Below, piece by piece: positions 30,001 through 64,000 of a DNA stretch of 64,000 nt. Below the pieces are notes generated by a model. That model had not been told where the DNA came from. It was given only the letters and a program-made list of their open reading frames with translations, and did no database searches. The DNA is from Mytilus edulis. Lineage: Eukaryota. Where the stretch lies: positions 35,464,001 through 35,528,000 of the forward strand of contig NC_092346.1 in NCBI RefSeq assembly GCF_963676685.1. The letters are read 5' to 3'. Made by a program: the position numbers and the translations under genes. Positions within the stretch are counted from its first letter, which is position 1; the number at the start of each line of letters is the position of its first letter.

Positions 30001-32033
30001 TATGACCATTTTTGGAATACATGTATTAGAAATGAAATCATCATTTTGATTATACAATATGGAAGCAGAAAAAGATCAGAGTTATGCCTCTTGTAATTTT
30101 TTTTTTTAGTTTAATTTTCAAGCTTTTGTTTGTACATTATTTAATTTGAAAAGCATCTGATCTAATATGATATGTTTACTGTAATTATAAAAAACACAGA
30201 CAATTGAGTATAACAGATGTAACATTTTGTTCTGCATGGGGCGAGGTTGTAGAATGCCAGGGAAAAATATTACTTTTCCAATGGCAAAAAACGGCAAAAT
30301 ATCTTAATTTCTTCTTGTCACTGACACCTTCGTTTTTAAAAATATCTGACATGGAGGTTGTTTAGTTTGTCTCAAAATAATTGTCAACAAACCTTGACAG
30401 CATTTTCACACTTGAGTTGTCGAGTTGATTTTAAACTAAATCTGACATGGAGATTGTTTAGTTTGTCTTTAAATAATTGTCAACAAACCTTGACAGCATT
30501 TTCACACTTGAGTTGTCGAGTTGATTTTAAACTAAATCTGACATGGAGGTTGTTTAGTTTGTCTTTAAATAATTGTCACCAGACTTTGACAGCATTTTCA
30601 CACTTGGGTTGTTTTAAGGAGTCTGATACATAAAAATCTTTCTAACATACTTTTTCATAAAGTTATAAGTTAAACTTCTATTCCAGTGAAATTGGTTTCT
30701 TAATTCTGGGCATGACCTTAATTTCATGTTCCAGTTGCCAGGATTATGCCTTTTTCTTAGTTCTTATAAATGGCAGGTGACACTGTTAAAAATATTGATT
30801 TTTTATTAGTATATATCTGTCTGTCTGTCTAAGTCATATGACCTTCACATATTTTTATACTCCAATGGTCAGGTTTAAGATTTTTGATTGGAATTATCAC
30901 AGAAATTATACATTTAAGCCATTGATTCACAATAATTTGTATACGGACTATGATAAGAAATGGATTTGTATCTAAAAGGTTTATTTGACGGCGACCTATT
31001 TTTTACTTAAAAATTAAAGAAATTCAAATATTGCTGTAAGAGAAATATTTTTAAGTGTCAACTTTAATTAAGCTGTATTCCTTTTTATCTGGAAAAATCT
31101 CTTGTGGACATCCTTTTCTTGTATTGACGTTAAATATATGTTATTAAATTTAGGCCATAATAGATGCAATTTTTTTTATTCTATGAGCTATTGACAAAAT
31201 ACATTTATACATGTACCAAGCAAACACAAATTTTTGTAATCGAAAAATTATAGATAACTTATAAAGTTTAAATATAAAAAAAAAAAAATTAATAAAATTT
31301 GAAATTAGAAATTTCTGGAGCAAGAAAGTTAAAAGAACAAAGAATTAATAAGGCTTGGTCTTATATATTTACTTTCAATTGAATGATATGCATGTAAATG
31401 AGCAAACTTCCTCTCTTGTTTCGTGGAATGCACTAAACTTCATAGGAAGATGAGGATGAAGTGACCTGTAAAACAATTCATTTGTCCTTTTATATGTTAT
31501 GTAATATTTTAAAAGACGTTTGAACATCCTATCCTAAGGCTTAAAGATGTCTTATTCTGTTTGTGATGTATACAGACCTTGATATATTTATAATAGCTAA
31601 TAATGAAATTACATAAGTGCATATTGAAAGGGATGATATATGTCTAGACTCCTATCAGATTGTACTTTCTCTCTTATCAAAAAAGATTAGAGTAGGGGGG
31701 AGTTGTAGTCTCAAGGTTCTCACTAAGGTTTTTTGAAGATGAGTCCTGAGACTCTTTAATTTTTGGCCGACGGGAGTCCAACAGTGAGAAGATGCAATTT
31801 ATTGCTATGTAATTTATTGATAAAATCCCCATGACAAAATAAAACAAGGGAATGCCAATTACAAGGAACTTAGATTTAATCTAAACTTGCGTTATCAAGA
31901 GATGATAGTTGTGCTCAGTTGATAAAACATTATGCAGTCTTGATGCAGCTGTTACCTGCTCTTTGGTGGGGTTGTTGTCTCTTTGAAATATTCCTCATAT
32001 CCATTCTCAATTTTATTATACCCCACGCAACGA

Positions 32034-32069
<36 letters not shown>

Positions 32070-33162
32070 CGTCCGTCCGTCAGTCCTGTTTCTTGTCATT
32101 GCAACTCCTCTCAAACCACACAACAGAATTTCACGAAACCTTTTCAGATGAAAAGGACATACTATGTAGTTGTGCATATCGACAGGAAATTGCGATTCAA
32201 TTTTTTTTATAAGAGTTACACCCCTTTGAACTTATTTGCTTAATGTACTACTGCAACAGTTTGTCATCGCAACTCCTCTGAAACTACACAACAGAATTTC
32301 ATGAAACCTTTTTAGATAATAAGGACATACTATGTAGATGTGCATATCGACAGGAAATTACGATTCAATTTTTTTCTAGGAGTTACCCCCCTTTGAACTT
32401 ATTTACTTTATTGTACTACTGCAACAGTTTGTCATCGCAACTCCTCTGAAACTACAAAACAGAATTTCATGAAACCTTTTAAGATAATAAGGACATACTA
32501 TGTAAATGTGCATATCGACAGGAAATTACGATTCAATTTTTTTTCTAGGAGTTGCATCTCTTTGAACTTATTTGCTTCAATGTACTTTTGCAACAGTTTG
32601 TCATCTCAACTCCTCTGAAACCACACAACAGAATTGCATGAAATTTTGTAGATAATAAGGACATACTATGTTGATGTGCATATTGACAGGAAATTATTAT
32701 TCAATATTTTTTCTTATACAATTTTTTTTTCTTACACTTATTTAATTTCTCCAATGACAATGTGGGGACGTGGGGTATGTGAGCGTGCTCACTAAGGTTC
32801 TTTAATTTTTGGACTGCACCAATTTTGAAAAAGATGAGTCCATACAGATTTTTTGCAAGTCAACGACTCTTAGTCTCACATTAGCGAGAACCCTGAGTCT
32901 GTTTATTCTTCACTTGCTAAAATTTTAGGGTCCTCAGATATGAACTAATCAGTTACTGTTAAAAGTGTGATGCTTTATATTCAGATGGATAAAAATTCTG
33001 AATGTCACGTATGTAAAAATCTCGGACCTCTTTTGGATAACAAAACTATTGATTAAAACTTACCTATCTTTTGTAGATATGAGAAAAGCGTTATCTAGAG
33101 ATACAGAGAAGAAATCTGTGATTCCGTTGGCTCACCCTGTTCGTCCAGAGGAGTTGGATTGA
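15033..33162 (+). CDS. NAA20: N-alpha-acetyltransferase 20 (NatB catalytic subunit), 173 aa. Exons 15033-15085, 16850-16874, 17817-17907, 19244-19373, 19732-19868, 33077-33162
   Basis: Spliced ORF of 522 nt: MTTIRPFTCDDLFRFNNV/NLDPLTET/YGLPFYMQYLAHWPEYFQVAESPAGQIMGY/IMGKAEGSNDLWHGHVTALSVAPEYRRLGLAAKLMNILEEISEK/KRCFFVDLFVRVSNKVAVDMYNKLGYTVYRTVLEYYSGEVDEDAY/DMRKALSRDTEKKSVIPLAHPVRPEELD*. It carries the GNAT acetyl-CoA motif RRLGLA, and all junctions are phase-compatible. Confidence 0.97.
15345..16072. mobile_element. Foldback element with GGTCCGTTCG(C/T)GCCC termini and subterminal TTCGC repeats, in NAA20 intron 1
   Basis: Inverted ends at ~15349-15440 and ~15980-16070. A 12-bp direct repeat CCCTGGCAGACA lies at 15331 and 16073. 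Confidence 0.55.
16875..17816 (+). other. U12-type (minor spliceosome) GT-AG intron, NAA20 intron 2
   Basis: The donor is GTATCCTTC (16875). The branch point TTCCTTGAC (17800-17808) lies about 10 nt before the CAG acceptor, with no long polypyrimidine tract after it. Confidence 0.9.
17940..18543. repeat. Hairpin-ended element (palindrome 18400-18539) in NAA20 intron 3
   Basis: GTTACATAGTGTGCTAGTGAC..CCATATGGGG / CCCCATATGG..GTCACTAGCACACTATGTAAC with loop GCTTCGC. The left boundary is approximate. Confidence 0.65.
19940..20192 (+). mobile_element. tRNA-derived SINE with V-domain-like core and (TCAA)n tail; further copies at ~25420-25665 and ~34768-35023
   Basis: A-box-like TGGTAGACTGG, B-box-like GTTTGAATCC, core GGTGGTTTTC..GGCACT..TTCCCCACCAATAAAA and tail TCAATCAATCAATC. 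Confidence 0.7.
21508..21951. mobile_element. TA-flanked MITE (Tc1/mariner-like), TIR CTGTGAAAGT; related relic at ~19478-19692
   Basis: TACTGTGAAAGTAC ... TAACTTTCACAGTA. Confidence 0.65.
24005..24161. mobile_element. Poly-G/C MITE family (CAGTGGCGGATCC...GGATCCGCC.CTG)
   Basis: TIRs are visible; the same family occurs at 29003, 34377, 48045 and partially at ~52026. Confidence 0.7.
27276..27826 (-). mobile_element. Second, one-end-truncated copy of the AGGAGT MITE
   Basis: Reverse-complement similarity to 7931-8373 plus 9486-9624. Confidence 0.75.
29003..29184. mobile_element. Poly-G/C MITE, 5-bp TSD ACATA
   Basis: ACATA|CAGTGGCGGATCCAG ... CTGGATCCGCCTATG|ACATA. Confidence 0.8.
29499..29724. 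mobile_element. MITE with GAGG(C/G)CCCTCATGGGG TIRs, 6-bp TSD ACTAAG and internal TAATCA repeats
   Basis: ACTAAG|GAGGCCCCTCATGGGG ... CCCCATGAGGGCCCTC|ACTAAG. Confidence 0.8.
30343..30610 (+). repeat. 96-bp tandem repeat, about 2.8 copies
   Basis: Units begin (A/T)ATCTGACATGGAG at ~30343, 30439 and 30535. Confidence 0.9.
31712..32895. mobile_element. CA(A/G)GGTTCTC-ended DNA element with 5-bp TSD AGTCT, hosting a HINE
   Basis: AGTCT|CAAGGTTCTCACTAA ... TTAGCGAGAACCCTG|AGTCT. Confidence 0.75.
32012..32802 (+). mobile_element. Helentron-associated interspersed element (HINE; DINE-1/CvA-like) with about 3.6 internal 168-bp tandem repeats
   Basis: 5' subTIR TTATACCCCACG plus inverted repeat, (GTCC)n microsatellite, repeat units starting at ~32095, 32263, 32431 and 32600, 3' CGTGGGGTAT plus hairpin GTGAGCGTGCTCAC, inserted in T-rich sequence. 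More degenerate HINEs occur at ~6930-7160 (-), ~24862-25255 (+), ~39235-40415 (-) and ~53600-53884 (-). Confidence 0.8.
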
Positions 33163-34527: not shown

Positions 34528-36399
34528 ATTCTGTTGTCATCTTTCAAAATTTTCAAATCTGAAAGCACATGATATGAAACATACAATAATCTTCATCTTG
34601 AAAAAAGGCAAGCATACACCAATGGGATCATAAAAAATCACTTCTCATAGAAAAATGAAAAATAGAAAAACAGACAACAAAGATTGAGCAACAAACAAGA
34701 AAAAAAAAACATTGAATTTCTTAGGTGCTCTGGAAGGGTTAGTAATGCCAGTTCATTTAAATAAGTGGCCTTGGTGGCCAAGTGTTCTAAATAGTCAAAT
34801 TACTGTATCACTTAGCCTGTCAACAGTGAGGTTGTGAGTTTGAATCCTGAACATGACAGAAGAAGTCCAATCTTAATTAACTAGTATTGTCAGTTTTTCT
34901 ACCAGAAGTCAGTGGTTCCCCAACTAAGGAACATGGCTTCCTCTTACAATAAAAACTGGTTGCCACAAATAGCACAACAGTGCTGAAAGTGGTGTTATAA
35001 TGCCATATATCAATAAATCAATCTTTTGAATAGTCTAAACAGTTCTTTGCACCATATTTAATGTGCATTGTGTCGCAATACCTTGTCAACATGATTGATG
35101 TAACATCATGTGAAAAACAATACCTCAAGCAGAAGAAGTAAACATACAGAGTTTTCCAAGGTTAAATATTAAAATTTTGTCAATAGGGAATCAGCTTAAT
35201 CTTTCTTAATCAATGTTGATACATAAGAGAAGATGTTTTCTACAGAACATCAAGGTCAAAGATGATAATATGGAACCATGATAGATATTAAAGCCTTTTG
35301 GATTGCACAAATTGCAGAATATTAAACAAACTGCATGAGTACATGTATTTTATGTGCAGAATATGAAGGTATTGATTGATCTTTAAGATTTTGACTCTAA
35401 CTAGCAAAAGGTCTGGGACGATAGGATATAAAATCAATAATTATGGTTTATTTTAAGCTTTATGCTGTTACAAGTAAACGGCCTTGAATATGTCCCTATG
35501 ACCTTTAATTTGTTACTGCTATACACACCCCTGCATACCTAGTATATAATGTGAGCATCAGACTGTCTCTATGACTAGACCAGACTGACTTCTGTGTCAT
35601 TTTTGTGCAGCATTATAGAAATACATGTATATTGTAATCTGCAGCCATACCAATAGAATGTTAAAATCAAAAAGAATGTCAATAGATTATAGGTCAAAGT
35701 ACTGTCTTCAACACAGAGCCTTGGCTCATACCGAACATCAAGCTATAAATGGCCCCATTTCGTTTTTCAAGAATTTTTAATATTTGACCAACTCTGTAGA
35801 CAGTTGTGTCGAGGCTACTTTATATTATTGTATACAGAAAACAATACAACCATAGTTTGACGTTTACTTCATTATACCAGAGCTGCTAAGGCGATGTCGC
35901 ACACTGACATCAACCCTAGATACATAACAGTAAAACGCGACATCTTGACTCCCGCAGTATTCTCGACAAGTTGTTCTGATGCTTCCCTTGGTAATATATC
36001 TGCACTCCTTTATCGTTGTTTTATAGGTTTTATATTGAATATGTCATTTTATCTTAAAGATTGGATTGGATTTGTTTCAAGGCATTTATATTGGCCAAAT
36101 ATTGTATGGAAAAGTATTTGTATTACAACTATACCAATCCTTGGTCTGGCTTTTTTTTTAATATTTCATGTGTTCAGAACCTGATCAACTTTACTTCTGA
36201 TGGACTGTTTTCTTTAGCTTAATTTCATTGCTTGACCAGACTTTCATGGCTGCTCTTTTGTATTATGACTTACTTTTAAATGGAAAGATAAAATAGTGGT
36301 ATCAACATTAGCTAGAAGATTTTTTTATTAAAGCTTCATCTACTTTAAATGGCATGTGAGTGGCCATTTCCATTTGTAGGGATCTTTTATGGTCTTTTT

Positions 36400-38460
36400 C
36401 TAGACTGCATCTGTTTCATAAACGTTTTAAGCATTAGACTTCATGTGTTTCTTGACCTTGCTCACCATTATACTACATGTGTTTCATGAACTTTACTTAC
36501 CATTAGACTGTATTTGTTGCATGACCTTTCTTAGCTTTCAACTGCATGTGTTTCTTGACCTTGCTCACCATTAGACCCAATGAGTTTCATGAAATTTACT
36601 TACCATTTATAGACAACAAGTGTTTCGTGACCTTGTTCACCATAAGACTACATGTGTTTCATGATCTTGCTTTCCATTAGACTACATGTGTTTCATGATC
36701 TTGCTTTCCATAAGACTACATGTGTTTCATTGCCTTACTTACAAGTAGACTACATATACTTATCTTTAGACTACAAATATTTCATGACCTTGCTCAACAT
36801 AAGACTACATGTGTTTCGTGACTTTTGCTTACCATTAGACTGTATTTGTTGCCTGACCTTTCTTAGCTTTATACTGCATGTGTTTCATGACCTTGCTTTC
36901 CATTAGACAACATGTGTTTCATGAATTTTAGCTACCATTAGACAAAATGTGTTTCATGAACCTTATTAGCATTTGATTACATATGTTTCGTGACCTTGCT
37001 CACCATTAGACCACATGTGTTCATCACCTTACTTACCATTAGACTATATGTGTTTCATGACCTTTACTTAACATTAGACCACATGTGATCATGATCTTAC
37101 TTACCATTAGACTTCATGTGTTTCATGAACTTTACTTACCATGAGACTGCATGTGTTTCGTGACCTTACCTAACATTAAACTTCATGTGTTTCATAAACT
37201 TTACTTACCATTAGACTGCATGTGTTTCATGACCTTTCTTACTTTTAAACTTAATGTGTTTCGTGACCTTTTCTTACCAATAGACCACATGTTTTTCATA
37301 AACTTTATTAGCATTTGAATACATATTTTTCGTGACCTTGCTCACTATAAGACCACATGTGTCCATCACCTAACTTACCATAAGACTACATGTGCTTTAT
37401 AAACTTTACTTACCATTATATTGCATGTGTTTCATGATCTTACTTACCATTATACTTCATGTGTTTCATGACTTTTACTTACCATTAGACTTCATGTGTT
37501 TCATGACCTTTACTTACCATTAGAACTACATGTTATCATGATCCTACTTACCATTACACTGCGTTAGTTTCATGACCTTACTCACCATTAGATCGCATAT
37601 GTTTCATTACCTTTACTTACCATTAGACTTCATGTGTTTCATGACCTTACTCACCGTTAGACCACATGTGATCATGATCTTACTTACCATAATAGTTTAA
37701 TGGCATTAAACTAAATGTGTTTCATGACCTTACTTACCATTAGATCACATATATTTCATGACCTTACTTATCATTAGACTAAATGTGTGTCATGACTTTC
37801 CATAACATTACATGTGTTTCATGACTTTATTACCATTATACCACATGTGTTTCATGACTTTATTACCATTATACCACATGTGTTTCATGACCTTACTTAC
37901 CATTAGACTACATGTGTTTCATAACCTTAATTGCCATTACACTGTATGTGTTTCATGGCCTTACTTGGCATTAGACTACATGTGTTTCATGACTTAACTT
38001 ATTATTAGACTACATATGTTTCTTGACCTTGCTTATCATTAGACTTCATGTGTTTTTTTTTATTTTTTTAGCATTAGACTTCATCTGTTCCTGTACTTTC
38101 TTTTCATTTGATTGCATGTGTTTCATGACTTTGCTTAGCAGAATACTGCATGTGTCTCATGAACTGTATAAGCATTAGACTGCATGTATTTCTGGACCCT
38201 TATAAACATGGAACTGAATAGATTTCAGGAATTTATTAGCATTTGACTAAATTCGTTTCATGACCTTGCTTAACATTGGACTGCATGTGACTCGTGACCT
38301 AGCTGGGGCCTAGACAATATGCATTTCATGACCTTATTAAGTATAAGACCGCGTGAGTAGCATGACCTTGCTAAGCATAAGACTTGATTAGTTTCATAAC
38401 CTTGCTTTAATGCTTAACATTAGACTTGCTTTTACATTTTGTTGCATGTGTTTCATGACT
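36400..38460 (+). repeat. 34-35-bp minisatellite, roughly 55-60 diverged copies, consensus CATGTGTTTCATGACCTTACTTACCATTAGACTA
   Basis: Contiguous head-to-tail units without spacers, degenerating at both edges. Confidence 0.92.
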
Positions 38461-41028
38461 GTAAATGCAATTTCATTCTTGATATTAGCTTCCTTATATG
38501 ACATATCATATTTGGCATAAGCTTCCCAAGATGACACACATTTCGTGACCTTGTCTACATTTTGAATAAATTACTCGGTTTAACCTTAAATAACATGCAT
38601 TTATCTTTTTTGACCGTCACTACCGTGTCTGGCATATATTTCAAGACATCAACTACTTTCAAAAGTTACTTTATCTATTGAGCTTCTTGCCCTTTTCTTT
38701 TCGTGTTTTTCGAACCTTATTTAATCATGTGCCTGTGCGTTTTACAATTAAAAGTCACTTTAATACATATGATATCGCCATGTAAAATTTCACACGTACT
38801 GGGAATGATTATTTTTACACCACATGTACAAAATACATGAATCAACCAAGACACAATTAATATTAATTGAAATGCACTAATGATAGTCTCAGGAAGATAT
38901 TAATATCCCATAAGTGTTTGTTTACCATATATGACAAGTATCGTAAATCTGTTGCAAAATAGGATTTATCACGTGTTCAAGAAAACACCAGCATCAGGTT
39001 TTGGGAGAAACTAAACTTGAATAAAATTGAGAGTGGAAATTGGGAATGGGTCAAGAGACAAAGGTTGCCAATGGGCCTTTTAGACGGTAAGTATCTCGTA
39101 CCGGAGGTGGGTTTCATCTGCCCCTAAATAAAATCGTGTACTAGTTCAGTGAAAATAGACGTCCCACAACTTCAAAACATGTAAATGAACCAAAACAAAA
39201 ACAATTAAAAACCAATTGTTCAGAGAACCATTGATGGTCTTTCCACCAGTTAAGACCTTTTTTTATATGAAAATATTAAAATTTGGTTTTAAATGTCAAT
39301 TTTAGCGTCAAATGACAGCTTTTTGAAAGCTTATCAAAAAAATATATGGTTTCTATCAAAAAATATATATTAAAGGGAGATAATCTGTTACTTCCGGTTT
39401 AAAAAGTTTACTTCCGGTATTGTTTGATAGTTTACTTGACACTGATTCCAAAAATATATGGTTCTATATACTTTTACATTGATTTAGTACAAAAAATAGC
39501 TACTTCCGGTTTACAAAAGGTCACTTCCGGTTGTGTTTTTTAAGGTCACATTGCTTACAACTTAATGCAAAAAGTCCCATGGCTTTATCATGTGTAAATA
39601 TGAGGTAAAAGCAAAGGTCAAAATCTAGAACGTTTAATTAGCATATGACCTTGAGCTCAATTTCAAGGTCATAAAACAAGGACCTCAAATCAAAAGACTC
39701 TAGTCCTTTACTTTATATTGTTAATGAGTTATATTTCCATACGTATGATATTAGATATAAAAAGGGGGAAAACTCGCGTCAAATGTCTACGTACCCTTTC
39801 GACTAAAATTTATGTGTTACGACATGTCGTAACTAACAATTGTGTGAAAATATTTTGTCGATATCTTGTATGATTTCTGAAAATAAGAGATAACAAGCCA
39901 AAATCAAAAATTTGAACATGACCTTGACCTTTGACCTTGACCTCATTTTTATACTTTTTGAGCAAGGGCCTCAAATCAAAAGACCCTAGGCCTCTATCAC
40001 TTATGGTTTTCCAGTTACAAATTTATTTCATTTATTTCAATACAAAAGGGGAAATTACTCTCATATGGGGTCTTCGTAAAGCTTCGGTCAAAATAAAACG
40101 TAACATCCTGAGGATATAACGAGCAATTTGGAAAAATAAATTTGTCGCTTTCTTTTACGGTTGCGGAGGAGATCTGATAACAAGAAAAACAGTGTTTGGG
40201 GAGATAACTCTTACAAAGAAAAGTGTTCGGTTAAACAGGGTGAGTTTCAAAAGCGTATAGACTGTATGATATCATATACAAAAAAACTAAGCGACATCTT
40301 TTGAAACATTTATACACCGCAAGAAAAAAATTATGCGGAAGAAAAAAAAAAGAAAAAAAAAATAATCAGAACAAAATCAATAGGTCTTTCCACACGGAAA
40401 GGTGGAAAGACCTAAATATGTACAAGACTAACAAAGGCCAGAGTCCCTGACTTGGGGAGGGGAGAAAAAATGCGGCAGAGTTAAACATGTTTTGTGAGAT
40501 ATCTATCCCATCATATATACCTCGGGCTCCAGCCAATGTTGATTAAACAAACTCTCAAACACCTGAAGGTAGTATTTGGTACTTTATTACTCGTATACTA
40601 GAATTTTATCATGACATTGTACTATAACAATACTCAGTTAAAACTTGTCTAGTCTACTTTCTCGGGAGTGGTTATAGCAAGCTGTGAACAAGCACATCAA
40701 AAACTCCGGCTCAAGGTGTCGATCTAGTACAACGCAGGGTTAATATTCATATTACATGAACATGTTCTCGTCCTGAATATGCATATTAAAAGTTGCCGCT
40801 TGATGTATAGCAGTTATTCGTCAGTATTATAATCATCATCGGTTCGTGTGTCCTCTCTTCGTTCGTGTTTGTTCGATTGAAAATAAATGTATAGTTTATT
40901 TTGACAATTGAAATTAAAATTGTGTGTGTGTTGTTCCAGTATGTGATGGGATTTTGTGTTGCACGACTATACCAATGTCTCAATTTTCTACTACTTTTAA
41001 ATGTGTTAAATCCACACATAATGATAAA

Positions 41029-48091: not shown

Positions 48092-50748
48092 CCGGAGGTT
48101 GGAACCCCCCCTTCTTTGGCCTATCAATGCATTTGAATGGGGACATATGGTTAGACACCCCCTTTTATCTTGGGTTGGTTTTTTTTAAAATGGCTGGATC
48201 CGCCCCTGGTGTGTTCAACTACCTTTCAACGATATTGACTTTAACATATCGGTAGTTTTGTGCCTCCGGATAAAGTCGCAGTACCAAGAGAGGACCAACG
48301 ATCTTCAACGAGACAACATCACTGTCAATCCTTGTAAATTTTTTTAAAACTTGGTTATTCTTTTTGGGTCGCTTTAGTACATAAAGCTCATTACGTGTCT
48401 ACGTAGTTATATATCCCTGCATGGTTTCCAAATGTTAAGTTTAAATGTTCCTGATGGAGGTTTATCAAGAAAATCGCTTTGGACGCACGAAATTTATAAA
48501 GCGCTATTTCCATTTATTGATATATTGTAATTAAACAGATACTAGCATTGTATTTAGGAACATTTACTCCAATATATTAAACAGACATTGATGAAAATAA
48601 CAAAAACGGCGTGTGTAGATATTCTGAGGTAAATCGAGGATTTACGATTTTTATCCAATTTGGATATATCTTGTATATTTTTTCTAATTTCTTTGTATCC
48701 ACGTAAAAATATTTGATTTCACTTTTTTAAGCATCTTGCACATATCTTGCATTCGCATGAGCGTTTTTCAAATTATTGTGTACAAAAACATTTCAAATAC
48801 TTCACTCCCTTATACATAGCAAAATTTTTTAAGAGTGTGGTCCCTCAATTCCTACGAAGTGTCTAAATGGCCAATATTTTTTTTTTTGCATTATGAATAG
48901 AACTTCTGCTCATTTCATACAATTTGATTTTTTCCCATCACCTTAATTAATCTCTTTCTTTGAAAAAAAGAACATTAGAAAGAATACAATGAAAAGAAGG
49001 TATAATGACAATGACAGAAACCCAAAAATAAACAAAACAAAGACACCCAGATGTCAACATCTGACTTTAAATGAGCCTGCGACAAAAGTAACATAATTAA
49101 CAAGCTGAGTTGAGTAGCGTAAAAAATGATTTCTTATATAATGAACTATACGGTGACCTATAGTTGTTTTAAAATGTCTGTCATTTTGGTCTCTTGTGGA
49201 CAGTTGTCTCATTGGCAATCATCCCACATCTTCTTTTTTATCTATCTAAGGTCTGCCATTTGTTTCTAAGTATGGATAGTAAAATTGGGGTTTTTCTCTG
49301 AGTCGTTTAAATCAGTCGAAACTATGAATTATAAATATAGAAAATTAAATATTTTAATCTGTATCATATACCCAAGCGCCTGTGTCCGAAAGCACTCAAG
49401 AAACAGTTACATTTAACTTAAAAGGGGCTTATTTGGTTCCTGACAAATGAACATGAAGCGGTGTGAAACGATTTCAAGCATTCTTACTTTTAAGTTTTCT
49501 TTCAAAATGCAATTTAACTGTGACAGCAATAAACCTTTAAAGATCTTTATTTCCAGACATATATTGGGACAATGATTGGGTTGCTGTCTCAGTGGCATGT
49601 AACCCTTGTGATTGCCTATAATTGCTAACAACTATGGGTTGCCTCATATGATAGGCAATCTAAAAAACGTCTCCGCGTATTTTTTATGAAGTTAAAGGGA
49701 AACAACTCAAATTTTCTTAAAAAACGAAACCTGAACTGCACCCATCTGTAATTTTCACATCAATTACGCCTATAGAAATGGAAATGAACACTTGTAATTT
49801 ATTAAGTTTATGAAGGATCTGTGATTCATATACATTTATAAACCACAAGAGTATCAAGTTTCACTAATATTAAGAGTTTTTAATAATCTTAATATAGGTT
49901 AATGTTTGATTGACACCTATTCCCCGTACAGACATCACCAACATTTCTTACTTGTTAGTTTAATTTAAAATAAGTTATTACATAACTGTATACTTATCTC
50001 CGATTACATTAAAGCGACCATAAAAGTCAGTTTATAATTTATACACTTCTATAAGCCTTAACAATGACAACCGCTCTGCTGAATAAATATGATAAAATTA
50101 TATGAAAGAATTCAGGGGGTGGCTTTAACACCTTTGTAAGTCAACATTTCGTAATTTATGTAAACAGCATACTTGATGTAAATCTATAATACTTGTCTGA
50201 GCTATGTTTTTACATGTACATTTGTCAAATTTCTACACAAATACCGTCTGACACGGTTAATCATGAGCTGATAAATAAATACATGTTTTAAAGACCCAGT
50301 CCGTGAGAAAACTATAAAATAGTGTAAAGCTTCTTAAATCTTTCAGTATTAAGTGTGAAAACAGATATATGTTGTCACTTAATAAACTTATTGATTGAAA
50401 AGTAGTTTTAAAACTCATTTTATATCAATCTGATAAAATTATATAATTACAAATAGAGTTTCTAGGAATAAAGATGATATGTTTTACACATTATTGGAAA
50501 AATTAAGAAAAAAAATACCTCTTACCTTTTTGAGCGTAAGTACTATTGAATCCAATATTTGTCGAACAATCCGGACAACAGCGACATCTGTCTTTCACTA
50601 TTTCTCCATCACAGAATTGTAATTTTGGACACTTTTTTAAGTCACATTCATTAGGACACGGGGTCTGATACCTCTTAAGAGGTTCTCCCCAAGTTAGGTG
50701 GAAGAACAACCACAGTATTAAATTGGATAAAATATAGCTAAGTTCCAT
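44980..50748 (-). CDS. Secreted cysteine-rich protein, 233 aa: signal peptide, N-terminal half IGFBP domain, follistatin (FOLN + Kazal) module and K/R-rich tail (IGFBP-rP/follistatin-like). Exons 50748-50526 and 45458-44980
   Basis: Exon 1 encodes MELSYILSNLILWLFFHLTWG (signal) and CPNECDLKKCPKLQFCDGEIVKDRCRCCPDC, ending at donor AG|GTAAG. The acceptor TTTGCAG| joins in frame to DGACEQVSCPRFKVCMENMQGLPLCTCPNPFVCKGRRRHVCGKDGNTYESRCHLRVTSCHRAKRIRMAHKGAC (10 Cys; Kazal VCGxDGxTYxSxC). Confidence 0.85.
46938..47185 (+). repeat. Abundant dispersed repeat (GAAGACC..TGGTG.CCTTC..GGGTTGTTGTCTCTTTG.CACATTCCCCATTTCCATTCTCAATTTT); other copies at ~1945-2035, 3930-4025, 4130-4395, 31945-32012, 39020-39200 (-) and 41838-42065 (-)
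   Basis: Multiple similar copies within the window. The class is not determined. Confidence 0.75.
47540..47732 (+). repeat. Dispersed repeat ending GAGAGTTGTCTCATTGGCACTCATACCACATCTTCCTAT; other copies at ~2060-2172, 11430-11560, 44085-44165, 49150-49240, 35690-35760 (-) and 56040-56110 (-)
   Basis: Multiple similar copies within the window. The class is not determined. Confidence 0.7.
48045..48208. mobile_element. Poly-G/C MITE, 5-bp TSD GTGTG
   Basis: GTGTG|TAGTGGCGGTTCCA ... TGGATCCGCCCCTG|GTGTG. Confidence 0.75.
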
Positions 50749-53700
50749 CTTATTTTCCCGTCCTTTTTAAAATTATATTTTATTGTTACATTATAAATAC
50801 GTTTTAACGTCTAACTTGTTCAAAAGACAAAATTATAACATCGCGCAATTTAAAGAACAAATTGGATAAAAGCTCATATGTATCCTATTGGTTCACCTCG
50901 GACAATATTAGTCTGTTCCAAGGACAGGGGACAAAGGTAGTCACGTTCACTTTAAAAACAATATTTAGTGTAAATGTATCTAAATACACACTTAATCAAA
51001 ATCAGTTTTAGATATATATTTTTTTTAAATCATAAAAAAGATGACATTATCATTCAAACAAGTCAATATTTTAATATGCAGTTTACCGAATACAGACATC
51101 ACCCCTTAAAATATAATGGATTTACCTAAGTAGTTTTCTCATCACTATACTATACTTTAATACAATATTGACAAATATGAGTAACTCTATCATTATTCTC
51201 ATTAATCAAATCAGGGGGATTGTATTCAATATATAGATTAGAAGACTTTCGTGATCATCAATAAGAATAGATCGTATGCAACAAGGAATATAATCATTTT
51301 CTTATTTATTTCTGATGGGAACCGTCGGGACCAGAACCGTCTGCAATCGGGTTGCATTCCGACTATTGTACCCAGAGGGATTGCACATCAGACATTCCTT
51401 TTGAGTTCAATGAACATCAGATATGAGATTATCTCAGATGTACCCGCGGGAATGTCAGAATTTAGTAAAGAAGCTGCAGGAATATTTATTCAAATGTATT
51501 CACCCAATGCAAAGATAAAAAAAAATTGACATGCCCAAAAGAAATCCATTAATGTATGAAAAATAGTTTTGTGTTTTGAACAGAGACATTTAAATTCAGT
51601 AATCTTCGTTTTGAAGCACCAAAGGATTTGAGGAATGGTATACTTAATATAACTACTCTAATGTGGATAAATGTGTCTGTCTTAAAGTAATCACTATTGG
51701 ACTAATAGGACTGAGAACATTTAATACAAGATACACATATCATTGAAGGTCTCATTGGAGTCTAAGCGTGACGCGGGATGCTGATTTTTTGTGAGCGTGA
51801 CATGCGAAAGTCAAATCATTGTGGCGAGAAAAAAGAAATGAAGTACCTACATAGTGTAAGCGGGATACGGGAATCTGACAAAACAGTAAGCGTTATCAGA
51901 ACACCCCCCCCCCCCCCCCCCCCCCCCCCATCATTGTACATATAATCACCGTTGATTGAATTAACTTTCCAGCGAATAAGACCATTTCCTTTGAGAAAGG
52001 AGGAAACTACCGAATTGACCATTGTCAGTGGCGGATCTACAACGTTTAATAAGGGAAAAAGAGGGGGCACTGACTGACCTAAAAAAAAAGGTGGGGTCCA
52101 GTCAAGCTTCAATGATTCCCTATAAAATCAACAAAATTTCACTCTCCTATGATTGTTATGGGAGATCAATCGAACTGTGAAGATTAGAAATCATATTATC
52201 TGTACCGTATGTCAATTTGTTTTGGCAATTGTGGGGTCGTTTGGCAATTGTTCTTAGATCTTCTTACTTATTGTACTTTGGCCATTGATAATTTGTTAAT
52301 TTGAAGGGTCAATTCAGTGGCGGATTCAGGAATCGACGAATTGGTCCTCTTTAAAAAATATTTTTTGAATCCCACAAAAAAGTGCATATTAAAATATTTA
52401 ACATCTCACTCCACGCATTTTTAACAAGCCTACACTAGAAAGCCGGTTCCGTCCTGGTTTATTATTCTGCGAAGACCACTTGCTGTAGGAACAAACAGTC
52501 ACGGTACAAACCAAGCCGTTTAACATACAAAATACAAATGATGATATGGATAGGTAATAAAACCACCAGCCTGCTATTATTTACACACAGATATTTAAGC
52601 AGAATCTATCGTATGACGTAGACTCAAATGGAGAAATGGAAAAACCACCAAAAAAAACGAAGAAGTTTAGTTTTGAGAAACCTACTATCAGTTTAACGAG
52701 GGTGCACATGGTGAAATATCTCGCCTGTGGAACTGATTATAAGTGAGCTTTACGCATTATTTTTGTAGATCAATGTTGTGTAGTATGTAGTATGGTAATA
52801 CAGAAAATTATTAATTATCAATAATTTACGATAATAAGGTCATTGTTAGATTATTTTTTTTTGGGGAGGGGGGGGGGGGGGGGGCAGATAAACCCTGCCA
52901 TTTTTGACTGATGTTCCTTACAATCATACTACCCAGCTAATATAGTTTACCTACTTCTTATATTTACAACTTCACCGGAGAAATAAACCTTATACAAAAA
53001 CTTATCGGTGGCAAATGAAGCATGAATATTAGGTCAAGGTCATTTGTACCCTGTGTGATGGACATCAACAACTTAAAATCATTCGATGCATCGAATATAG
53101 TTGACCCTTTATTTATAGTATTTGAGAATTGGATCTCATATAAAATAGTAATGTTGGGAAAAGAACCATGCATATGAGGTCAAGGTCATATTTATCCTGT
53201 CAGACAAACATGAACACATAACATTATTACACCCAATTTAGTACTTACAATATCTTTATTAAAAGAATTTAATCACGAAATCATGACGTTGATTAAAAGA
53301 ATTTAATCACGAAATCATGACGTTAATTAAAAGAACTTAATCACGAAATATTGATGTTGATTAAAAGAACAATGATAGTAATGCCAAGGTCAGATGAACC
53401 CTGGCATACGGACATGTACACTGTATAACACACAGTAATTCTATAATGTTATTCCGGTATATTTTACTTGCTGCGTATATAGATAGTATCGGAGAAATAA
53501 ATCGAATCATGAAAGCTTTAACGTTGACTCAGTTAACTATAAACTTTGAATGAGGAGAAGGTCTGATTAACTATTATAATAAGGCATCTTTATATCCGAT
53601 TTTGTACAAAGTTAAATAGGGAATGTGTCCATAGGACACAGATGATGAACCCGCTTGCATATCATATACGGTTATAACGGTAAAAGTAACGCTACCCAAA

Positions 53701-56700: not shown

Positions 56701-57434
56701 TTCGAGCACAAAATGTGTACTCTTAGTACTGAATAAAGTAATATCGCTGAGCAGTTCCCTGGAAGACGATTATACCATATATTTTCCATAAGCTCAAAAG
56801 CAAAACAATAGCATTTTATTATGGCTGTATAAGTCAACCTATCAGCAGTTATATCATCCAGCAAGTACCTTACATGAAACATGTGTTATACCTTTTTCTC
56901 ATGAAATACAATTTTATAAATCCCTCCCAAAGGATTCAATGTAAAACTAAGCCTACTGTTTCCAGTCATAATAGTCTGCTGATCAGAACCAGGATAATCT
57001 CAGCTGACCACCAGTAACTAACCAATATCAGCAACTACCAATGACGACAACTGTATCTAAATGGAACTTTTTAAAATATATACTTATGACATGACCAAAA
57101 AAATGAGCCCATGTTACAGAAAAAAAGTCAAGCCAAAAAGATCATCTTAATCTCATAAAAATGGTTCTCAGCTTGGAAAATATTAAAACAGTGATATTTT
57201 AGAGTGTGATTAAAAAAATAAGTCCAGAAAATAAAACTGTTTGAGAAAATCGGAACTGCGGTGAAAAAACGAGTCCAACTTGTTCAAGACTCATTTATTT
57301 ATAAAAATCTTGCATCACTTAATATTTCTCAAATATAACTTTCATATCACAATTCTTACAAATGATCTATTGTTCTATTATATATAGACCGTTCTTAATA
57401 AGATTGTAATGAATATTCATATAAAATCGAAATC

Positions 57435-57450
57435 GAGGCTAAGCTAGGCA
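57435..57450 (+). promoter_or_regulatory. Subterminal motif GAGGCTAAGCTAGGCA, also at 61912-61927 (minus) and 62041-62056; candidate promoter or transposase-binding site
   Basis: An identical 16-mer sits 16 nt upstream of the exonuclease ATG and 15 nt upstream of the transposase ATG. Confidence 0.55.
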
Positions 57451-57466
57451 ATTATTTGTAAACAAT

Positions 57467-59485
57467 ATGGCAGCATCAACAACAAACGGTACCTCATCAA
57501 AAGATCTCTCACATTTACCAGATATATCATTTGCTTTTGTGGAAGAATTTATAAGAAAACACAGCCAGAGTTCAGGAAAAGAACAAATGACAAAAGGATT
57601 CAAATACTACAGCGAGGAATACGTACATTCTGTGTCAGGTAAGGTCACTTGTTATGTTTGTTTACGAGGTGCACGTGAGAAATATTGTCTTTACACAAAC
57701 CATTATTTTACCAGGAAATTATAACTTTTGACCATTATTTGTGCAGTAAAAATCATTATTCATATTCTTATTGTTTTAGTCTGCAGACTGCTGATTTATT
57801 TAGATAATTAACTCCGTATCTTGATCCTGATAATCACGTATAAATCAGCTGAATAAGTGAAGGGTAGCAATCATGCATGAACCCTCTTTGACAGAAAGTA
57901 TATTATTATTAGTAACAGATAATTAAACTTGTTTACATAGTTTTATATGTTAAATTTTATAGGTGTTTAGTATAAAAAAATGTATTTTTTTTTACAGTGC
58001 ATCCTGATGATACTGGGTGTTTGGTCAAAGGAAAATGTTTTAGATCACAAAGAAAAAACGAGTCTCCACATGATGTCAAGGTAGGCATACATTTTATTTC
58101 ACTTGTTGTACTAAACATAGAATATAAATATTAACTTTATATCCTCCTCAAAAAATATTTTGCAAATAAACAATTTCATACAATAATAAAGAACTTTACA
58201 TATTAATCAATACATGCATATGAATATAATAAAATTAGTAACAAAATATTAAACTAATACATCTCAAATTCTTTCACAGATCATGCTAAATGGAGGGCAG
58301 ATTGAATATTCATTCTGTACATGTACAATTGGACAAAGTGGTTACTGTGGACATGTGTCAGCCCTTCTTTACCAACTTGCACACTACAAATCCCTGAAAA
58401 TGAAGTTAATTCCAACAGATATTGCGAAAACATCTTTACCACAGACGTGGCATGTTCCACGAGGCCAGAAATTACATGGTGAAAAGGCTGATAACATCGT
58501 TGTGCAGGGTTATGACCGTGAGGATCCCCAACGAGCTACAAAGGGAATAAAGTCTACCCTATATAATCCTATTCCTGGGAACGAAGCTATTAATGTCAAT
58601 GACTTATTGGTCCAGGTTAACGATATGGACATTTTGTTTGACACTGTGGTGACAGAACACAGGACAGAACTAGTTCAAACTGAATTTGGTAAATTCCCTA
58701 AAGGAAGCATTCTCAGTTATCAACAAAAAATGGCAAGTGACTACCTCCTCAACTTAATGGATAATAATTCATTTCCAGAATTACCATTGAAAAATGTCAT
58801 GATTAACAATTTTGAAACTGTTCTCATGAAAGACCAGTTAAAAAAGTATGACTCCTTGAAGGTTACACTGCTGGAAAGTAAAGAGATTGAGGAAGGAACA
58901 CGTCTTCAATCGAATGATCCTAAATGGCATAAAATTAGACGTGATCGTATCACAGCATCACATGCAGGAGAAATAGCCAAGAGAAGAGCTGATGGGGCTA
59001 AACTTGCTGAACGCTTGCAGTCAACTAGACATGTTCAGACAGCAGCTATGAAACGTGGTATAGAATGTGAGGTTACTGCAGCCCAAGCCTATAGCAAGGT
59101 GATGAATGACAATGTCAACTTATATCCATGTGGTGTGATTGTAAATCCCTGGTGTCACTGGCTTGCAGCTACCCCAGACAGAAAAGTATATGCACCTGAT
59201 AGAAATCAACCACATGGTTTGTTGGAAATAAAGTGTCCAAACACTGACCAATTATCAAGCGTCAAATGTCTTCATTTAATTGACGGGGAGCTAAAATTGA
59301 AAAAAAATGATAACTATCATTATCAAATACAAATGCAAATGGCCGTGACAGGATTAGACTGGTGTGACTTTTTTGTTTGGCTTGAAAATGATTCACATTT
59401 GGAAACAGTTTATTTTGATAGTGAATTTTGGGAAGCTACAAAAGACAAACTTGATTTGTTTTTCAACACTTATTTTTTGAACTAA
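57467..59485 (+). CDS. SWIM zinc finger + YqaJ/lambda-exonuclease-like (PD-(D/E)XK) protein, 486 aa. Exons 57467-57638, 57998-58080, 58280-59485
   Basis: GT-AG introns with matching phases. SWIM motif CTCTIGQSGYCGH. YqaJ motifs TRLQSNDPKWHKIRRDRITAS, GIECE, LAATPDR, LLEIKCP and YHYQIQMQMAVTG. No internal stops. Confidence 0.9.
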
Positions 59486-59545
59486 ATTATGTCAATGTAT
59501 GCATGTATAAATGAAACACTATGCCAACTTTTAATTAGTGATGAT

Positions 59546-61896
59546 TTAGTTTTTTTGCTTAATTAATGGTCTTCTGAACAGAGTCAATAGATTAGCAACA
59601 GTCCATAACTGATTCACAGATCCAGCTAATGAAAGTGGGACTGTATACTGTAAAAGTCTATATTCTTTAGCCCGCTTTATATGCCGCTCAACATGTATTC
59701 TTAAGGATGCAATTTTTTGATTGTCCTCAATTTGTGACGGTGTAAACTGTCCATCACTGCAAAGGAAGTGTGGCGTAGCTATTGACACACCTGTATCTTT
59801 AAGTAATTTATTTAAAATAAACCCTTTATCCGCCATTATTTGGTCTCCTGGTTCTAATAAGTCAATAAGTCCACTATGCTTGGTAATTTCTATGTCAGAC
59901 ATACATCCAGAATATAATGCAGAAATGAAAGTGATAGCACCATGTGGCGATATTCCGACCAGTCCTTTCCAGGTGTTGTGACTTTTGTATGATGAAAAGG
60001 TTTTTGACGCCAAGGCTAAAGAAGAAGGTCTTTCTGTAAAAATTTCGGTACAGTCTATTATCACACGCGTGTTAGGGTACAGAAGTTTGAAGTCCTGTGG
60101 CATATGCTCCATTATTTTACCCCTACTAGGCCAGATATTAATGCCACCCAATATGAAATATAAATAATTTGTCCAAGTTATTATTTTTCTGCTTACTGTT
60201 GATGCATGAATGTTAAATCTTACTGACAAGTCCTCAGTCAGAAAACCACACCTTAACCTACATAAAAACATAAACAGTTCATCAATAGGATCCATTGACT
60301 TTGGACGTCCTCTATTGCTGGGTTCCTCAGAAGACTTATAATACACAGTTTTCATTCTTGTTGCAGTAGGCTTGATAGCAGAATAGAAAATTAAAAATAA
60401 ATCAAAAGTTGGAAATCCAGTATAAAACTCTATCATTTCATGGTCGTAAGAAAATCTTGTTACTCCAAACCGTTCCATTTGTAATTTCTGGTTTAAACTT
60501 GCCAGCTCATAGGTCTTGTCTTTAAGTTCAGAGTCCTTTTGCTGTACCACATGTTCAAGTTTCTCAATTTTCTCAAGACAGTCAGCATGAATGTTAGAAT
60601 CACAACTCCTGTCAATATAAAATAAATGTATTAAGTAATGGTATAATCTCCTTAACATTAAAAAGGGGGAAGTAGTTTTAAAGCACACTGTGTTTCCTTT
60701 TGATTTTATAAAATATTTTTATGTTTTCTTTTCAATTATTTTGAAAATAATTATATACATAAAAAAAACATGCAAGTTCAATTTAAATTTGGGTTTGTAC
60801 ATTTAATATTTTTTTATTTTGAATTAATACATTCTGATAACTAAACTTACATGTCATTTTCATGATCAACACTTTGTGAATTGTGAACTTCACAGACACT
60901 ATCCTCTACAACCATTTCATCTTCATCTTCACGATCGTCAACTTTCATCTTTTTGAAAAGGGACTGTCTTGATGTGGGGGCCTTTCTGCTGCTTTCATTT
61001 AATTTCCAATCAAAGACAGATGGAACAGCTTCTGGTTTGAGACATTTTCTGTTAGGAGTCCAGCGGTAATCTTCCTTCTTGAAATGTTTGGAACAAACCA
61101 CTGTATTTCCTCCAATCTGAAAACAAACACAAATTAATAGGTTTCGTTCTTGTATTTATATAACATTGTTCTTAAGTTATCATATTTATAATGTAGACCA
61201 GTAACATATTTATAAAAAAAATAAGAAGTTTATTCTTTTTATTATTTAATAAATAAAAGTATTTGCAATTTACAAATGTGTTTATAGGTAAATTATAATT
61301 TTAACAGAATGTTGAGAATGAAATTGTTGGTGTTGTTTACGAATACATCACATTATTTTCATTCTATATGACCATGACGACAGACGTGTTTGAAGTTCCA
61401 AATGCATATTATATTTATAACAGTCTCGTACACACAGTGATAAAAACAACATGGGATAAATTAATTACACATATCTACAGATATGGGATGAAGGAAAAAT
61501 CGCTATCAACATGTGGTAACAGTTTGACATGTAACACTTAAACAGATGTTTTACGGCTAAAATAAAAGTATTGTTAAAGAAAAATATTGTTGAACAAAAT
61601 CTTATAGTCTGTCTGAAACTAATTATTGAAAATTGGGACAGGTATTACATATAAAACAACATTATCGGCTTCTATGAAAAGTGTAAACAAATGCACGTGT
61701 TTCTAGTATTTACCTTGAAAAATTCACCTTCATCTCTACGGATTGCAACAATCCACTGTTTTCTTGTTAGCATTTTCTTTTCTGATGGTATATGATGAAA
61801 ACTCAACTCTTTATTAGTTCTGGCATTGCCGTTACAAAATGGCACACAACAGTATTCATCTCTTTGTTTACTTGTTGATGCTGCTGGAGAAGCCAT
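59546..61896 (-). CDS. THAP + HTH + DDE (DDE_Tnp_4, Harbinger/ISL2-like) transposase, 503 aa. Exons 61896-61714, 61116-60851, 60608-59546
   Basis: THAP C2CH domain: YCCVPFC..FHHIP..W..AIRR/IGGNTVVCSKHF..LKPEAVPSVF. Coiled coil, then HTH (LFMFLCRLRCGFLTEDLSVRFNIHASTVSRKI). Catalytic IIDCTE, MADKGF and RIHVERHI. Splice phases are consistent. Confidence 0.92.
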
Positions 61897-61991
61897 TATT
61901 GATAATACCGGTGCCTAGCTTAGCCTCATTTTCGAAAATTGAACTCTGGGTCAATGCATACATGAATAACTTTTAAGAACCGTCTATAATA

Positions 61992-64000
61992 AGACCGTTC
62001 TTAATAAGATTGTAATGAATATTCATATAAAATCGAAATCGAGGCTAAGCTAGGCAATTATTTGTAAACAATATGGCAGCATCAACAACAAACGGTACCT
62101 CATCAAAAGATCTCTCACATTTACCAGATATATCATTTGCTTTTGTGGAAGAATTTATAAGAAAACACAGCCAGAGTTCAGGAAAAGAACAAATGACAAA
62201 AGGATTCAAATACTACAGCGAGGAATACGTACATTCTGTGTCAGGTAAGGTCACTTGTTATGTTTGTTTACGAGGTGCACGTGAGAAATATTGTCTTTAC
62301 ACAAACCATTATTTTACCAGGAAATTATAACTTTTGACCATTATTTGTGCAGTAAAAATCATTATTCATATTCTTATTGTTTTAGTCTGCAGACTGCTGA
62401 TTTATTTAGATAATTAACTCCGTATCTTGATCCTGATAATCACGTATAAATCAGCTGAATAAGTGAAGGGTAGCAATCATGCATGAACCCTCTTTGACAG
62501 AAAGTATATTATTATTAGTAACAGATAATTAAACTTGTTTACATAGTTTTATATGTTAAATTTTATAGGTGTTTAGTATAAAAAAATGTATTTTTTTTTA
62601 CAGTGCATCCTGATGATACTGGGTGTTTGGTCAAAGGAAAATGTTTTAGATCACAAAGAAAAAACGAGTCTCCACATGATGTCAAGGTAGGCATACATTT
62701 TATTTCACTTGTTGTACTAAACATAGAATATAAATATTAACTTTATATCCTCCTCAAAAAATATTTTGCAAATAAACAATTTCATACAATAATAAAGAAC
62801 TTTACATATTAATCAATACATGCATATGAATATAATAAAATTAGTAACAAAATATTAAACTAATACATCTCAAATTCTTTCACAGATCATGCTAAATGGA
62901 GGGCAGATTGAATATTCATTCTGTACATGTACAATTGGACAAAGTGGTTACTGTGGACATGTGTCAGCCCTTCTTTACCAACTTGCACACTACAAATCCC
63001 TGAAAATGAAGTTAATTCCAACAGATATTGCGAAAACATCTTTACCACAGACGTGGCATGTTCCACGAGGCCAGAAATTACATGGTGAAAAGGCTGATAA
63101 CATCGTTGTGCAGGGTTATGACCGTGAGGATCCCCAACGAGCTACAAAGGGAATAAAGTCTACCCTATATAATCCTATTCCTGGGAACGAAGCTATTAAT
63201 GTCAATGACTTATTGGTCCAGGTTAACGATATGGACATTTTGTTTGACACTGTGGTGACAGAACACAGGACAGAACTAGTTCAAACTGAATTTGGTAAAT
63301 TCCCTAAAGGAAGCATTCTCAGTTATCAACAAAAAATGGCAAGTGACTACCTCCTCAACTTAATGGATAATAATTCATTTCCAGAATTACCATTGAAAAA
63401 TGTCATGATTAACAATTTTGAAACTGTTCTCATGAAAGACCAGTTAAAAAAGTATGACTCCTTGAAGGTTACACTGCTGGAAAGTAAAGAGATTGAGGAA
63501 GGAACACGTCTTCAATCGAATGATCCTAAATGGCATAAAATTAGACGTGATCGTATCACAGCATCACATGCAGGAGAAATAGCCAAGAGAAGAGCTGATG
63601 GGGCTAAACTTGCTGAACGCTTGCAGTCAACTAGACATGTTCAGACAGCAGCTATGAAACGTGGTATAGAATGTGAGGTTACTGCAGCCCAAGCCTATAG
63701 CAAGGTGATGAATGACAATGTCAACTTATATCCATGTGGTGTGATTGTAAATCCCTGGTGTCACTGGCTTGCAGCTACCCCAGACAGAAAAGTATATGCA
63801 CCTGATAGAAATCAACCACATGGTTTGTTGGAAATAAAGTGTCCAAACACTGACCAATTATCAAGCGTCAAATGTCTTCATTTAATTGACGGGGAGCTAA
63901 AATTGAAAAAAAATGATAACTATCATTATCAAATACAAATGCAAATGGCCGTGACAGGATTAGACTGGTGTGACTTTTTTGTTTGGCTTGAAAATGATTC
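61992..64000. mobile_element. ISL2EU-type transposon copy 2 (head-to-tail tandem, truncated by the window edge)
   Basis: Matches 57386-59394 at a constant offset of 4,606 bp. I saw no differences by eye, including in the homopolymer runs I checked. Confidence 0.9.
62073..64000 (+). CDS. SWIM-YqaJ exonuclease, copy 2 (exons 62073-62244, 62604-62686, 62886->64000; incomplete)
   Basis: Same sequence and splice sites as copy 1. Confidence 0.88.

Follow-up and report, generated by a model that had tools for sequence, protein, structure and literature searches.

Mirrored ends of a tandem ISL2EU-type transposon in Mytilus edulis: a likely subterminal transposase site and probable end promoters

When two copies of a transposon lie head to tail, the genes that start at the abutted ends stand head-to-head around a palindrome, and one such locus in Mytilus edulis raises the question of whether this arrangement creates a special promoter or is a by-product of the way the copies arose. 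The locus lies in a stretch of 64,000 nucleotides (nt), termed here the window (NCBI RefSeq assembly GCF_963676685.1, contig NC_092346.1, positions 35,464,001 to 35,528,000 of the forward strand), in which positions 57386-61985 comprise a 4,600-base-pair (bp) ISL2EU-type transposon with two convergent genes, encoding a YqaJ exonuclease (+ strand) and a THAP-HTH-DDE transposase (- strand). The original prediction took the inverted ends to be mirrored promoters of both genes, which would be assembled at the junction into a stronger divergent promoter analogous to that of IS911. We favour another reading, with a rough probability of 0.65: the window holds the joint of identical head-to-tail young ISL2EU copies, each end carries a phased subterminal THAP site together with a promoter, and the divergent gene pair is a by-product of duplication. 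The limits of the element, its convergent genes and its AT duplications are observed directly, and the tandem pair comprises:

57386 to 61985, + strand: copy 1 of the ISL2EU-type transposon, 4,600 bp, with the AT target duplication just before it (57384-57385)
61992 to 64000, + strand: copy 2, equal to copy 1 across all 4,600 bp, extending beyond the window to 66591 and followed there by AT
57467 to 59485, + strand: copy 1 gene for the YqaJ exonuclease, with exons predicted at 57467-57638, 57998-58080 and 58280-59485, 487 amino acids; the start in copy 2 is at 62073
59546 to 61896, - strand: transposase gene (THAP + HTH_Tnp_4 + DDE_Tnp_4), predicted exons 61896-61714, 61116-60851 and 60608 (or 60605)-59546, 502-503 amino acids
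61986 to 61991, no strand: junction spacer ATAATA, which differs from the outer AT duplication

Exon models of both genes were predicted, by coordinates, from GT-AG sites and the open frame. Pfam matches in the element comprise YqaJ (E 2.6e-18), DDE_Tnp_4 (E 5.5e-38), HTH_Tnp_4 (E 7.7e-13) and THAP, the last divided between two exons (E 3.7e-8 and 5.5e-8). The two ATGs named in the original prediction are indeed 81 and 89 bp in from the ends, at 57467/62073 (+ strand) and 61896 (- strand), with 176 nt between them at the junction, and both look like true starts, as the spliced models predicted from them are the 487-residue YqaJ protein and the 502-503-residue transposase.

The two ends align well beyond chance (local score of 66, compared with a mean of 20.9 and a maximum of 37 over 2,000 shuffles). 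The inverted similarity had been described as running about 100 bp and into both coding regions; it does reach a coding patch, but it is not continuous, consisting of three islands only, namely a 13-bp tip (12/13 match), a 24-bp block (22/24) and an in-frame coding patch of 13 bp. Alignment of the two stretches between these islands was no better than that of shuffles (p of 0.55 and 0.81). The proposed 16-mer is present at both ends (57435-57450 and 62041-62056 on the + strand, 61912-61927 on the - strand). With the left tip at 57386 and 61992, and the right tip ending at 61985, the ends are built as follows:

61973 to 61985, - strand: terminal inverted repeat tip at the transposase-gene end, 13 bp, 12 of 13 positions equal to the other tip
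61992 to 62004, + strand: terminal inverted repeat tip at the YqaJ-gene end of copy 2 (copy 1: 57386-57398)
61936 to 61972, - strand: end-specific middle segment of the transposase end, with TATTCAT at offset 17, likewise in three sibling families
62005 to 62032, + strand: end-specific middle segment of the YqaJ end, with TATTCAT at offset 28, kept among YqaJ ends of four families; candidate part of a promoter
61912 to 61935, - strand: subterminal block of the mirror, whose GAGGCTA core (61927-61921) is 58 bp away from the tip; probable THAP site of the transposase
62033 to 62056, + strand: subterminal block of the mirror (in copy 1: 57427-57450), whose GAGGCTA core (62041-62047) is 49 bp away from the tip; probable THAP site of the transposase
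61872 to 61884, - strand: coding patch (AAST), 13 bp, identical to 62076-62088 on the + strand; window family only

An upstream ATG at 61928-61930 (- strand) falls within the transposase-end block and opens a 4-codon frame; siblings read ACG or TCG there, and it would be of consequence only if transcription begins upstream of the block.

A transposase search of the genome gave 137 scored matches among 340 candidates, 57 further stretches were examined, and both ends were found for nine families, the window family included; seven more loci, at which an inverted-repeat search gave no element ends, and families F13 and F12, whose ends were not resolved, stand outside these counts. GAGG(C/T)TA is present at both ends of five families (the window family, F1, F1c, F14 and F2), though their tips differ. 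The transposases of F1, F1c and F2 are about 51-63% identical, and F14 was found through its first exons. Over the 10 ends of the five families, the distance between tip and core is 48 bp at six ends, 49 at two, and 58 and 38 at one each. The spacing from motif to ATG, which the original prediction had proposed to compare on related ends, drifts instead over 19-32 nt (19, 21, 25, 27, 28, 30, 31, 31, 31 and 32 nt); it is the distance to the tip that stays, at 48-49 in 8/10. The ATG is also close to the end in siblings (57-89 nt in 10/10 ends). The eight bases past the core match at 7.2/8 between the two ends of one family and at 3.4/8 between like ends of different families, and both this family-specific mirrored extension and the end-to-motif distance are direct observations. 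Middle segments go with the type of end: the YqaJ ends of four families score 0.67-0.81 versus each other, while the two ends of one family score 0.21-0.52. TATTCAT stands at offset 17 in 4/5 transposase ends and at 27-28 in 4/5 YqaJ ends, i.e. one turn apart. A mirrored internal block exceeded 500 shuffles in 6/8 families tested (F14 was left out of this test), and distant families carry other motifs; in F11 and F11b, end-proximal words lie 67-68 bp from the tip. The comparison supplies a candidate binding site and a spacing rule (48 bp ± one turn).

A comparable layout is known from the P element, whose THAP sites are at bp 53-63 and 41-51, and from Galileo, whose family-specific sites are at +63 to +80 (PMC3688188), P-element spacing being 9 versus 21 bp (PMC7776569). 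The P element and Galileo resemble the window family in having a THAP domain at the N-terminus and, 40-80 bp inside each end, a site of family-specific sequence whose spacing is unequal at the two ends (PMC7776569, PMC3688188); in the window family and its siblings the inverted site is found at offsets 38-58 in 10/10 ends, with its family-specific extension. They differ in belonging to another transposase group, in that binding has been demonstrated there and is proposed here, and in that both sites of the window family stand just before a start codon. A genome search with the motif pattern returned 21 matches, 13 of them ISL2EU ends and eight scattered, while a control returned seven. As a host-wide promoter element the motif was rejected, the eight matches beyond ISL2EU ends comparing with those seven and 0/8 resembling a gene start. 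The P/Galileo-like layout and the scarcity of the motif outside the elements lead us to read the block as the subterminal site of the transposase. The 16-mer, put forward in the original prediction as a THAP site, is a good candidate for one, and by sequence and analogy the GAGG(C/T)TA block likely fits a P-element-like transposase site better than the mirrored core promoter also put forward, which would be expected to keep its distance to the ATG.

Since the ATGs are 57-89 nt inside in 10/10 ends, promoters probably share the same stretch and lie within the element ends, as in maize MuDR. This element also has two convergent genes that start near its ends, with promoters and a transposase site in the terminal inverted repeats, but its repeats are continuous over about 215 bp, whereas the mirror of the window family consists of short islands (PMC3440606). 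End promoters have been reported for Tc1/mariner elements too (PMC6446368). RNA reads were few, at 13, 1, 11 and 4 (29 in total, from ~37 million records in four runs), and formed no start pile-ups, the coverage being too thin for this. The palindrome CATGAATATTCATA was likewise tried and rejected as a host promoter element: it had 227 matches versus 54, yet a single repeat family accounts for 4 of the first 12 loci, and a start-like ATG was nearby in 0/12 loci (background 3/72). A separate repeat family (L192, L193, L195 and L197; 98-100% identity over 600 bp) contains this palindrome.

Assignment to ISL2EU is based on gene content, duplications and tips. ISL2EU elements are described with a THAP-HTH-DDE_Tnp_4 transposase, a YqaJ gene, an AT duplication and short inverted tips (PMC4482050, PMC4122938, PMC9179366), all of which the window family displays, along with a length of about 4.6 kb and an animal host. 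Its terminal inverted repeats, at 13 bp, are within the ISL2EU range of 6-259 bp. A GG tip and an A-AT-T target are usual, not obligatory, in ISL2EU (PHIS group), whereas the window family has AG tips and a T-AT-A preference. The role of YqaJ in ISL2EU is stated as unknown (PMC4482050), and the literature examined held no biochemical study of ISL2EU transposition; nor was a description of ISL2EU subterminal motifs, promoters or arrays found in a search outside which lay Repbase reports, subscription journals and the bioRxiv supplement. Elements of this type are known, as are end promoters, subterminal THAP sites and tandem dimers, and the end map is new.

The genome contains at least nine full copies of the window family at six loci or more (one dimer, in the window, one trimer and four solos), 5/9 of them located in arrays. 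The 2-bp duplications are AT/AT at 5/6 loci and TA/TA at 1/6, the latter flanking a solo copy (L030:449-5047, G000:C7). Outside AT, the base is T in 4/5 left flanks and A in 5/5 right flanks. Full copies fall into two subfamilies with 51-60 differences between them and one array in each. No stop was identified in the matched coding stretches of any full copy, the match of one solo being limited to residues 1-46 of the first YqaJ exon, where it has a 2-nt insertion. Element ends were seen joined to other flanks in DNA runs from other samples (n=4), which makes the family polymorphic and probably recently active. The window family is young, mostly intact and polymorphic between individuals. Genome-wide, at least 137 ISL2EU/Harbinger-like transposase matches were recorded, and many families have near-identical copies and open frames.

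The structure of both arrays is observed directly. The dimer copies of the window differ from each other at 0 sites and from any other copy at 14 sites or more. The trimer (G000:C11:1997125-2010915; L025, L026) has TA at both joints and AT at its outer flanks, and its copies are 4-10 differences apart. Four variants, one of them a 4-nt insertion that interrupts the 16-mer, are common to trimer copies 1 and 2 and missing from copy 3. At both of its ends the middle copy resembles copy 1, a pattern not expected from simple unequal crossover in a dimer. The numbers of differences among the copies suggest local self-duplication. The spacers of the three joints measure 6, 2 and 2 nt, so that 2/3 match the target duplication in length, but in 0/3 is the spacer identical to the outer AT duplication. 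Double insertion would place that duplication at the joint (bioRxiv 10.1101/158386), so in its simple form it does not account for the arrays. Next to the left tip, at the place where AT is found in host flanks, the last two bases of both spacer types are TA. ATAATA corresponds to the ATA of the right flank joined to the TAT of the left flank after inversion, which hairpin opening could produce, although with so few A/T bases the likelihood of chance is high. The junction folds as a single strand at -8.0 kcal/mol over 48 nt (z -5.2) and at -50 kcal/mol over 229 nt (z -9.5), a palindrome to be expected wherever copies with inverted tips are joined head to tail.

In the favoured model, the transposase would contact each end twice, through its THAP domain at the GAGG(C/T)TA block and through its catalytic core at the 13-bp tip, an arrangement under which spacing would shift by whole turns only. 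As the ATGs allow no space elsewhere, transcription would begin inside the ends, and the promoter would likely occupy the same 80-90 bp of each end as the mirrored block. Bound transposase would then sit on or beside both start regions and could damp both genes; such autorepression is plausible, and a literature search on autoregulation gave nothing useful. Arrays would form by joining the right end to the left end of the same or a sister copy, through end joining or re-integration of an excised circle, which would keep the outer AT duplication and leave a variable spacer.

Several points weigh against this model. In two of the eight families, F5 and F11, the mirrored block did not reach significance (477 and 64 of 500 shuffles), and the F3 ends differ by a 13-bp offset. 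The position of each element end was judged visually from an AT-flanked tip. Because the five families are kin, and F1 and F1c close kin, their offsets amount to about four lineages; helical phasing depends on two shifts of 9-10 bp, and the standard deviation is similar for both distances (4.5 for the tip, 4.3 for the ATG). Mirrored or end-proximal words of distant families presumably resemble YY1, ETS, forkhead and E-box cores (L073, L078, L092, L094 and L099). The THAP site was assigned by position and sequence comparison, and we infer binding, transcription from the ends and the joining route. Most RNA reads are 90-99% alike to the element and 2/29 are at or above 99%, hence partly from relatives. 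Finally, the 6-nt spacer appears in none of the four DNA runs, and no read confirms this junction, although contigs show presence and not absence.

The mirrored block could alternatively be a core promoter that drives both genes in step, with joined ends building a stronger divergent promoter like bacterial Pjunc. It stands ahead of the ATG, within 19-32 nt, at every end, MuDR runs its two genes from inverted-repeat promoters, most full copies are in arrays, and IS30 dimers with a fixed 2-bp joint form Pjunc (PMC9333248); as in IS2 and IS30 junctions, a right and a left end are abutted across a short spacer (IS911 is named in PMC3299598 and PMC9333248). Yet Pjunc is built from halves in the two ends at a set spacer, which IS2 requires to be exact (PMC3299598), whereas spacers here vary and each gene has its own upstream segment. 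The block follows the tip and not the ATG, without enrichment outside these elements, and the 4-nt insertion of the trimer breaks the 16-mer at one of the three junctions and at the outer end. Exact-pattern searches for junctions in three sibling families, which decayed joints would escape, gave 0, 0 and 1 match, the single match having no element sequence around it. One run gave an RNA depth of 0.04 over the junction bin and the other three gave zero, and the runs may lack a junction. The variable spacers, the broken 16-mer and the lack of a sibling joint argue against a selected junction promoter, so that the IS911-like part of the original prediction is not borne out, the head-to-head layout is likely a by-product of local duplication, and a core promoter role for the block is clearly unlikely. 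We give a slimmer chance to the proposal that the mirrored patches are no protein site and owe their similarity either to gene conversion between the two ends or to an ancient long inverted repeat of which they are remnants. In its favour, identity enters coding sequence in the window family and spans 30 bp up to the ATG in F2. The coding patch exceeds chance (p of 0.0008 by codon shuffle and 0.008 under the stricter null with the NCA codon run retained, the patch having been picked after being seen), and it matches less well in older copies of the window family (4-10 bp). Against it, families with different tips and with transposase identities of 51-63% all retain the core, and the segments flanking the core have not been homogenised. 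Conversion may nevertheless lie behind the coding patch and the family-specific extension. The N-terminal motif said to be shared by the two proteins is a real patch in the window family but is not supported as a design feature, as four sibling families share only 5-7 bp there; inside its NCA codon run, it is most readily explained by local conversion or drift in a leader that tolerates change. All eight starts chosen through homology carry A at position -3 and G at +4, a context that alone would favour Ala or Asp as the second residue.

As to the arrays, they may be ordinary double insertions later moved as a unit, or the window dimer may be an assembly artefact, which we consider rather unlikely. 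Head-to-tail dimers are common for active DNA transposons in Drosophila (bioRxiv 10.1101/158386), the TA duplication at 1/6 loci means that a TA joint can arise by double insertion, and the dimer copies are fully identical, with the 6-nt spacer missing from the DNA runs as noted above. However, with no junction equal to the outer AT, each array would need a second move; arrays occur in both subfamilies; the trimer copies are unlike each other; and ATAATA is absent from the local flanks. One 57-nt contig from another run (X10, labelled another organism) contains a 2-nt joint, though under the 31-base bridging bar, and the lack of a junction contig in 3/4 DNA runs is not evidence of absence. The arrays of the window family resemble Drosophila tandem dimers and KolobokP multimers in having head-to-tail full copies of an active family and a palindromic joint (bioRxiv 10.1101/158386, PMC9587614). 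P dimers have the target duplication at the joint (bioRxiv 10.1101/158386), whereas the joint here differs from the outer duplication, and KolobokP arrays share a long direct repeat (PMC9587614) that the window element lacks. A bolder proposal, which we regard as markedly improbable, is that ISL2EU joins its own ends in a programmed step, through a circle or sister-copy dimer like those of bacterial copy-out/paste-in elements, that YqaJ supplies circles or broken ends as substrates for recombination with resident copies, and that the joint switches both genes together under two transposase sites. It draws on the spacers that end in TA at the left tip and on the ATA plus inverted TAT composition of ATAATA, such as a hairpin-opened end would give. 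Programmed joints would make this an animal transposon using the circle or dimer route known from bacteria; otherwise, the end map is still a practical start for reconstitution.

Elsewhere in the window, a long degenerate tandem array with a 34-35-bp unit and strong strand skew occupies 36390-38571, and further tandem repeats have units of 168 bp (32093-32714) and 96 bp (30333-30620). A cysteine-rich frame at 50503-50766 (- strand) is one that we take to resemble an IGFBP-type exon. Two near-perfect short hairpins, similar to miniature inverted-repeat transposable elements, are located at 18396-18543 (65-bp arms, 97%, 18-nt loop) and 1036-1156 (43-bp arms, 93%, 35-nt loop).

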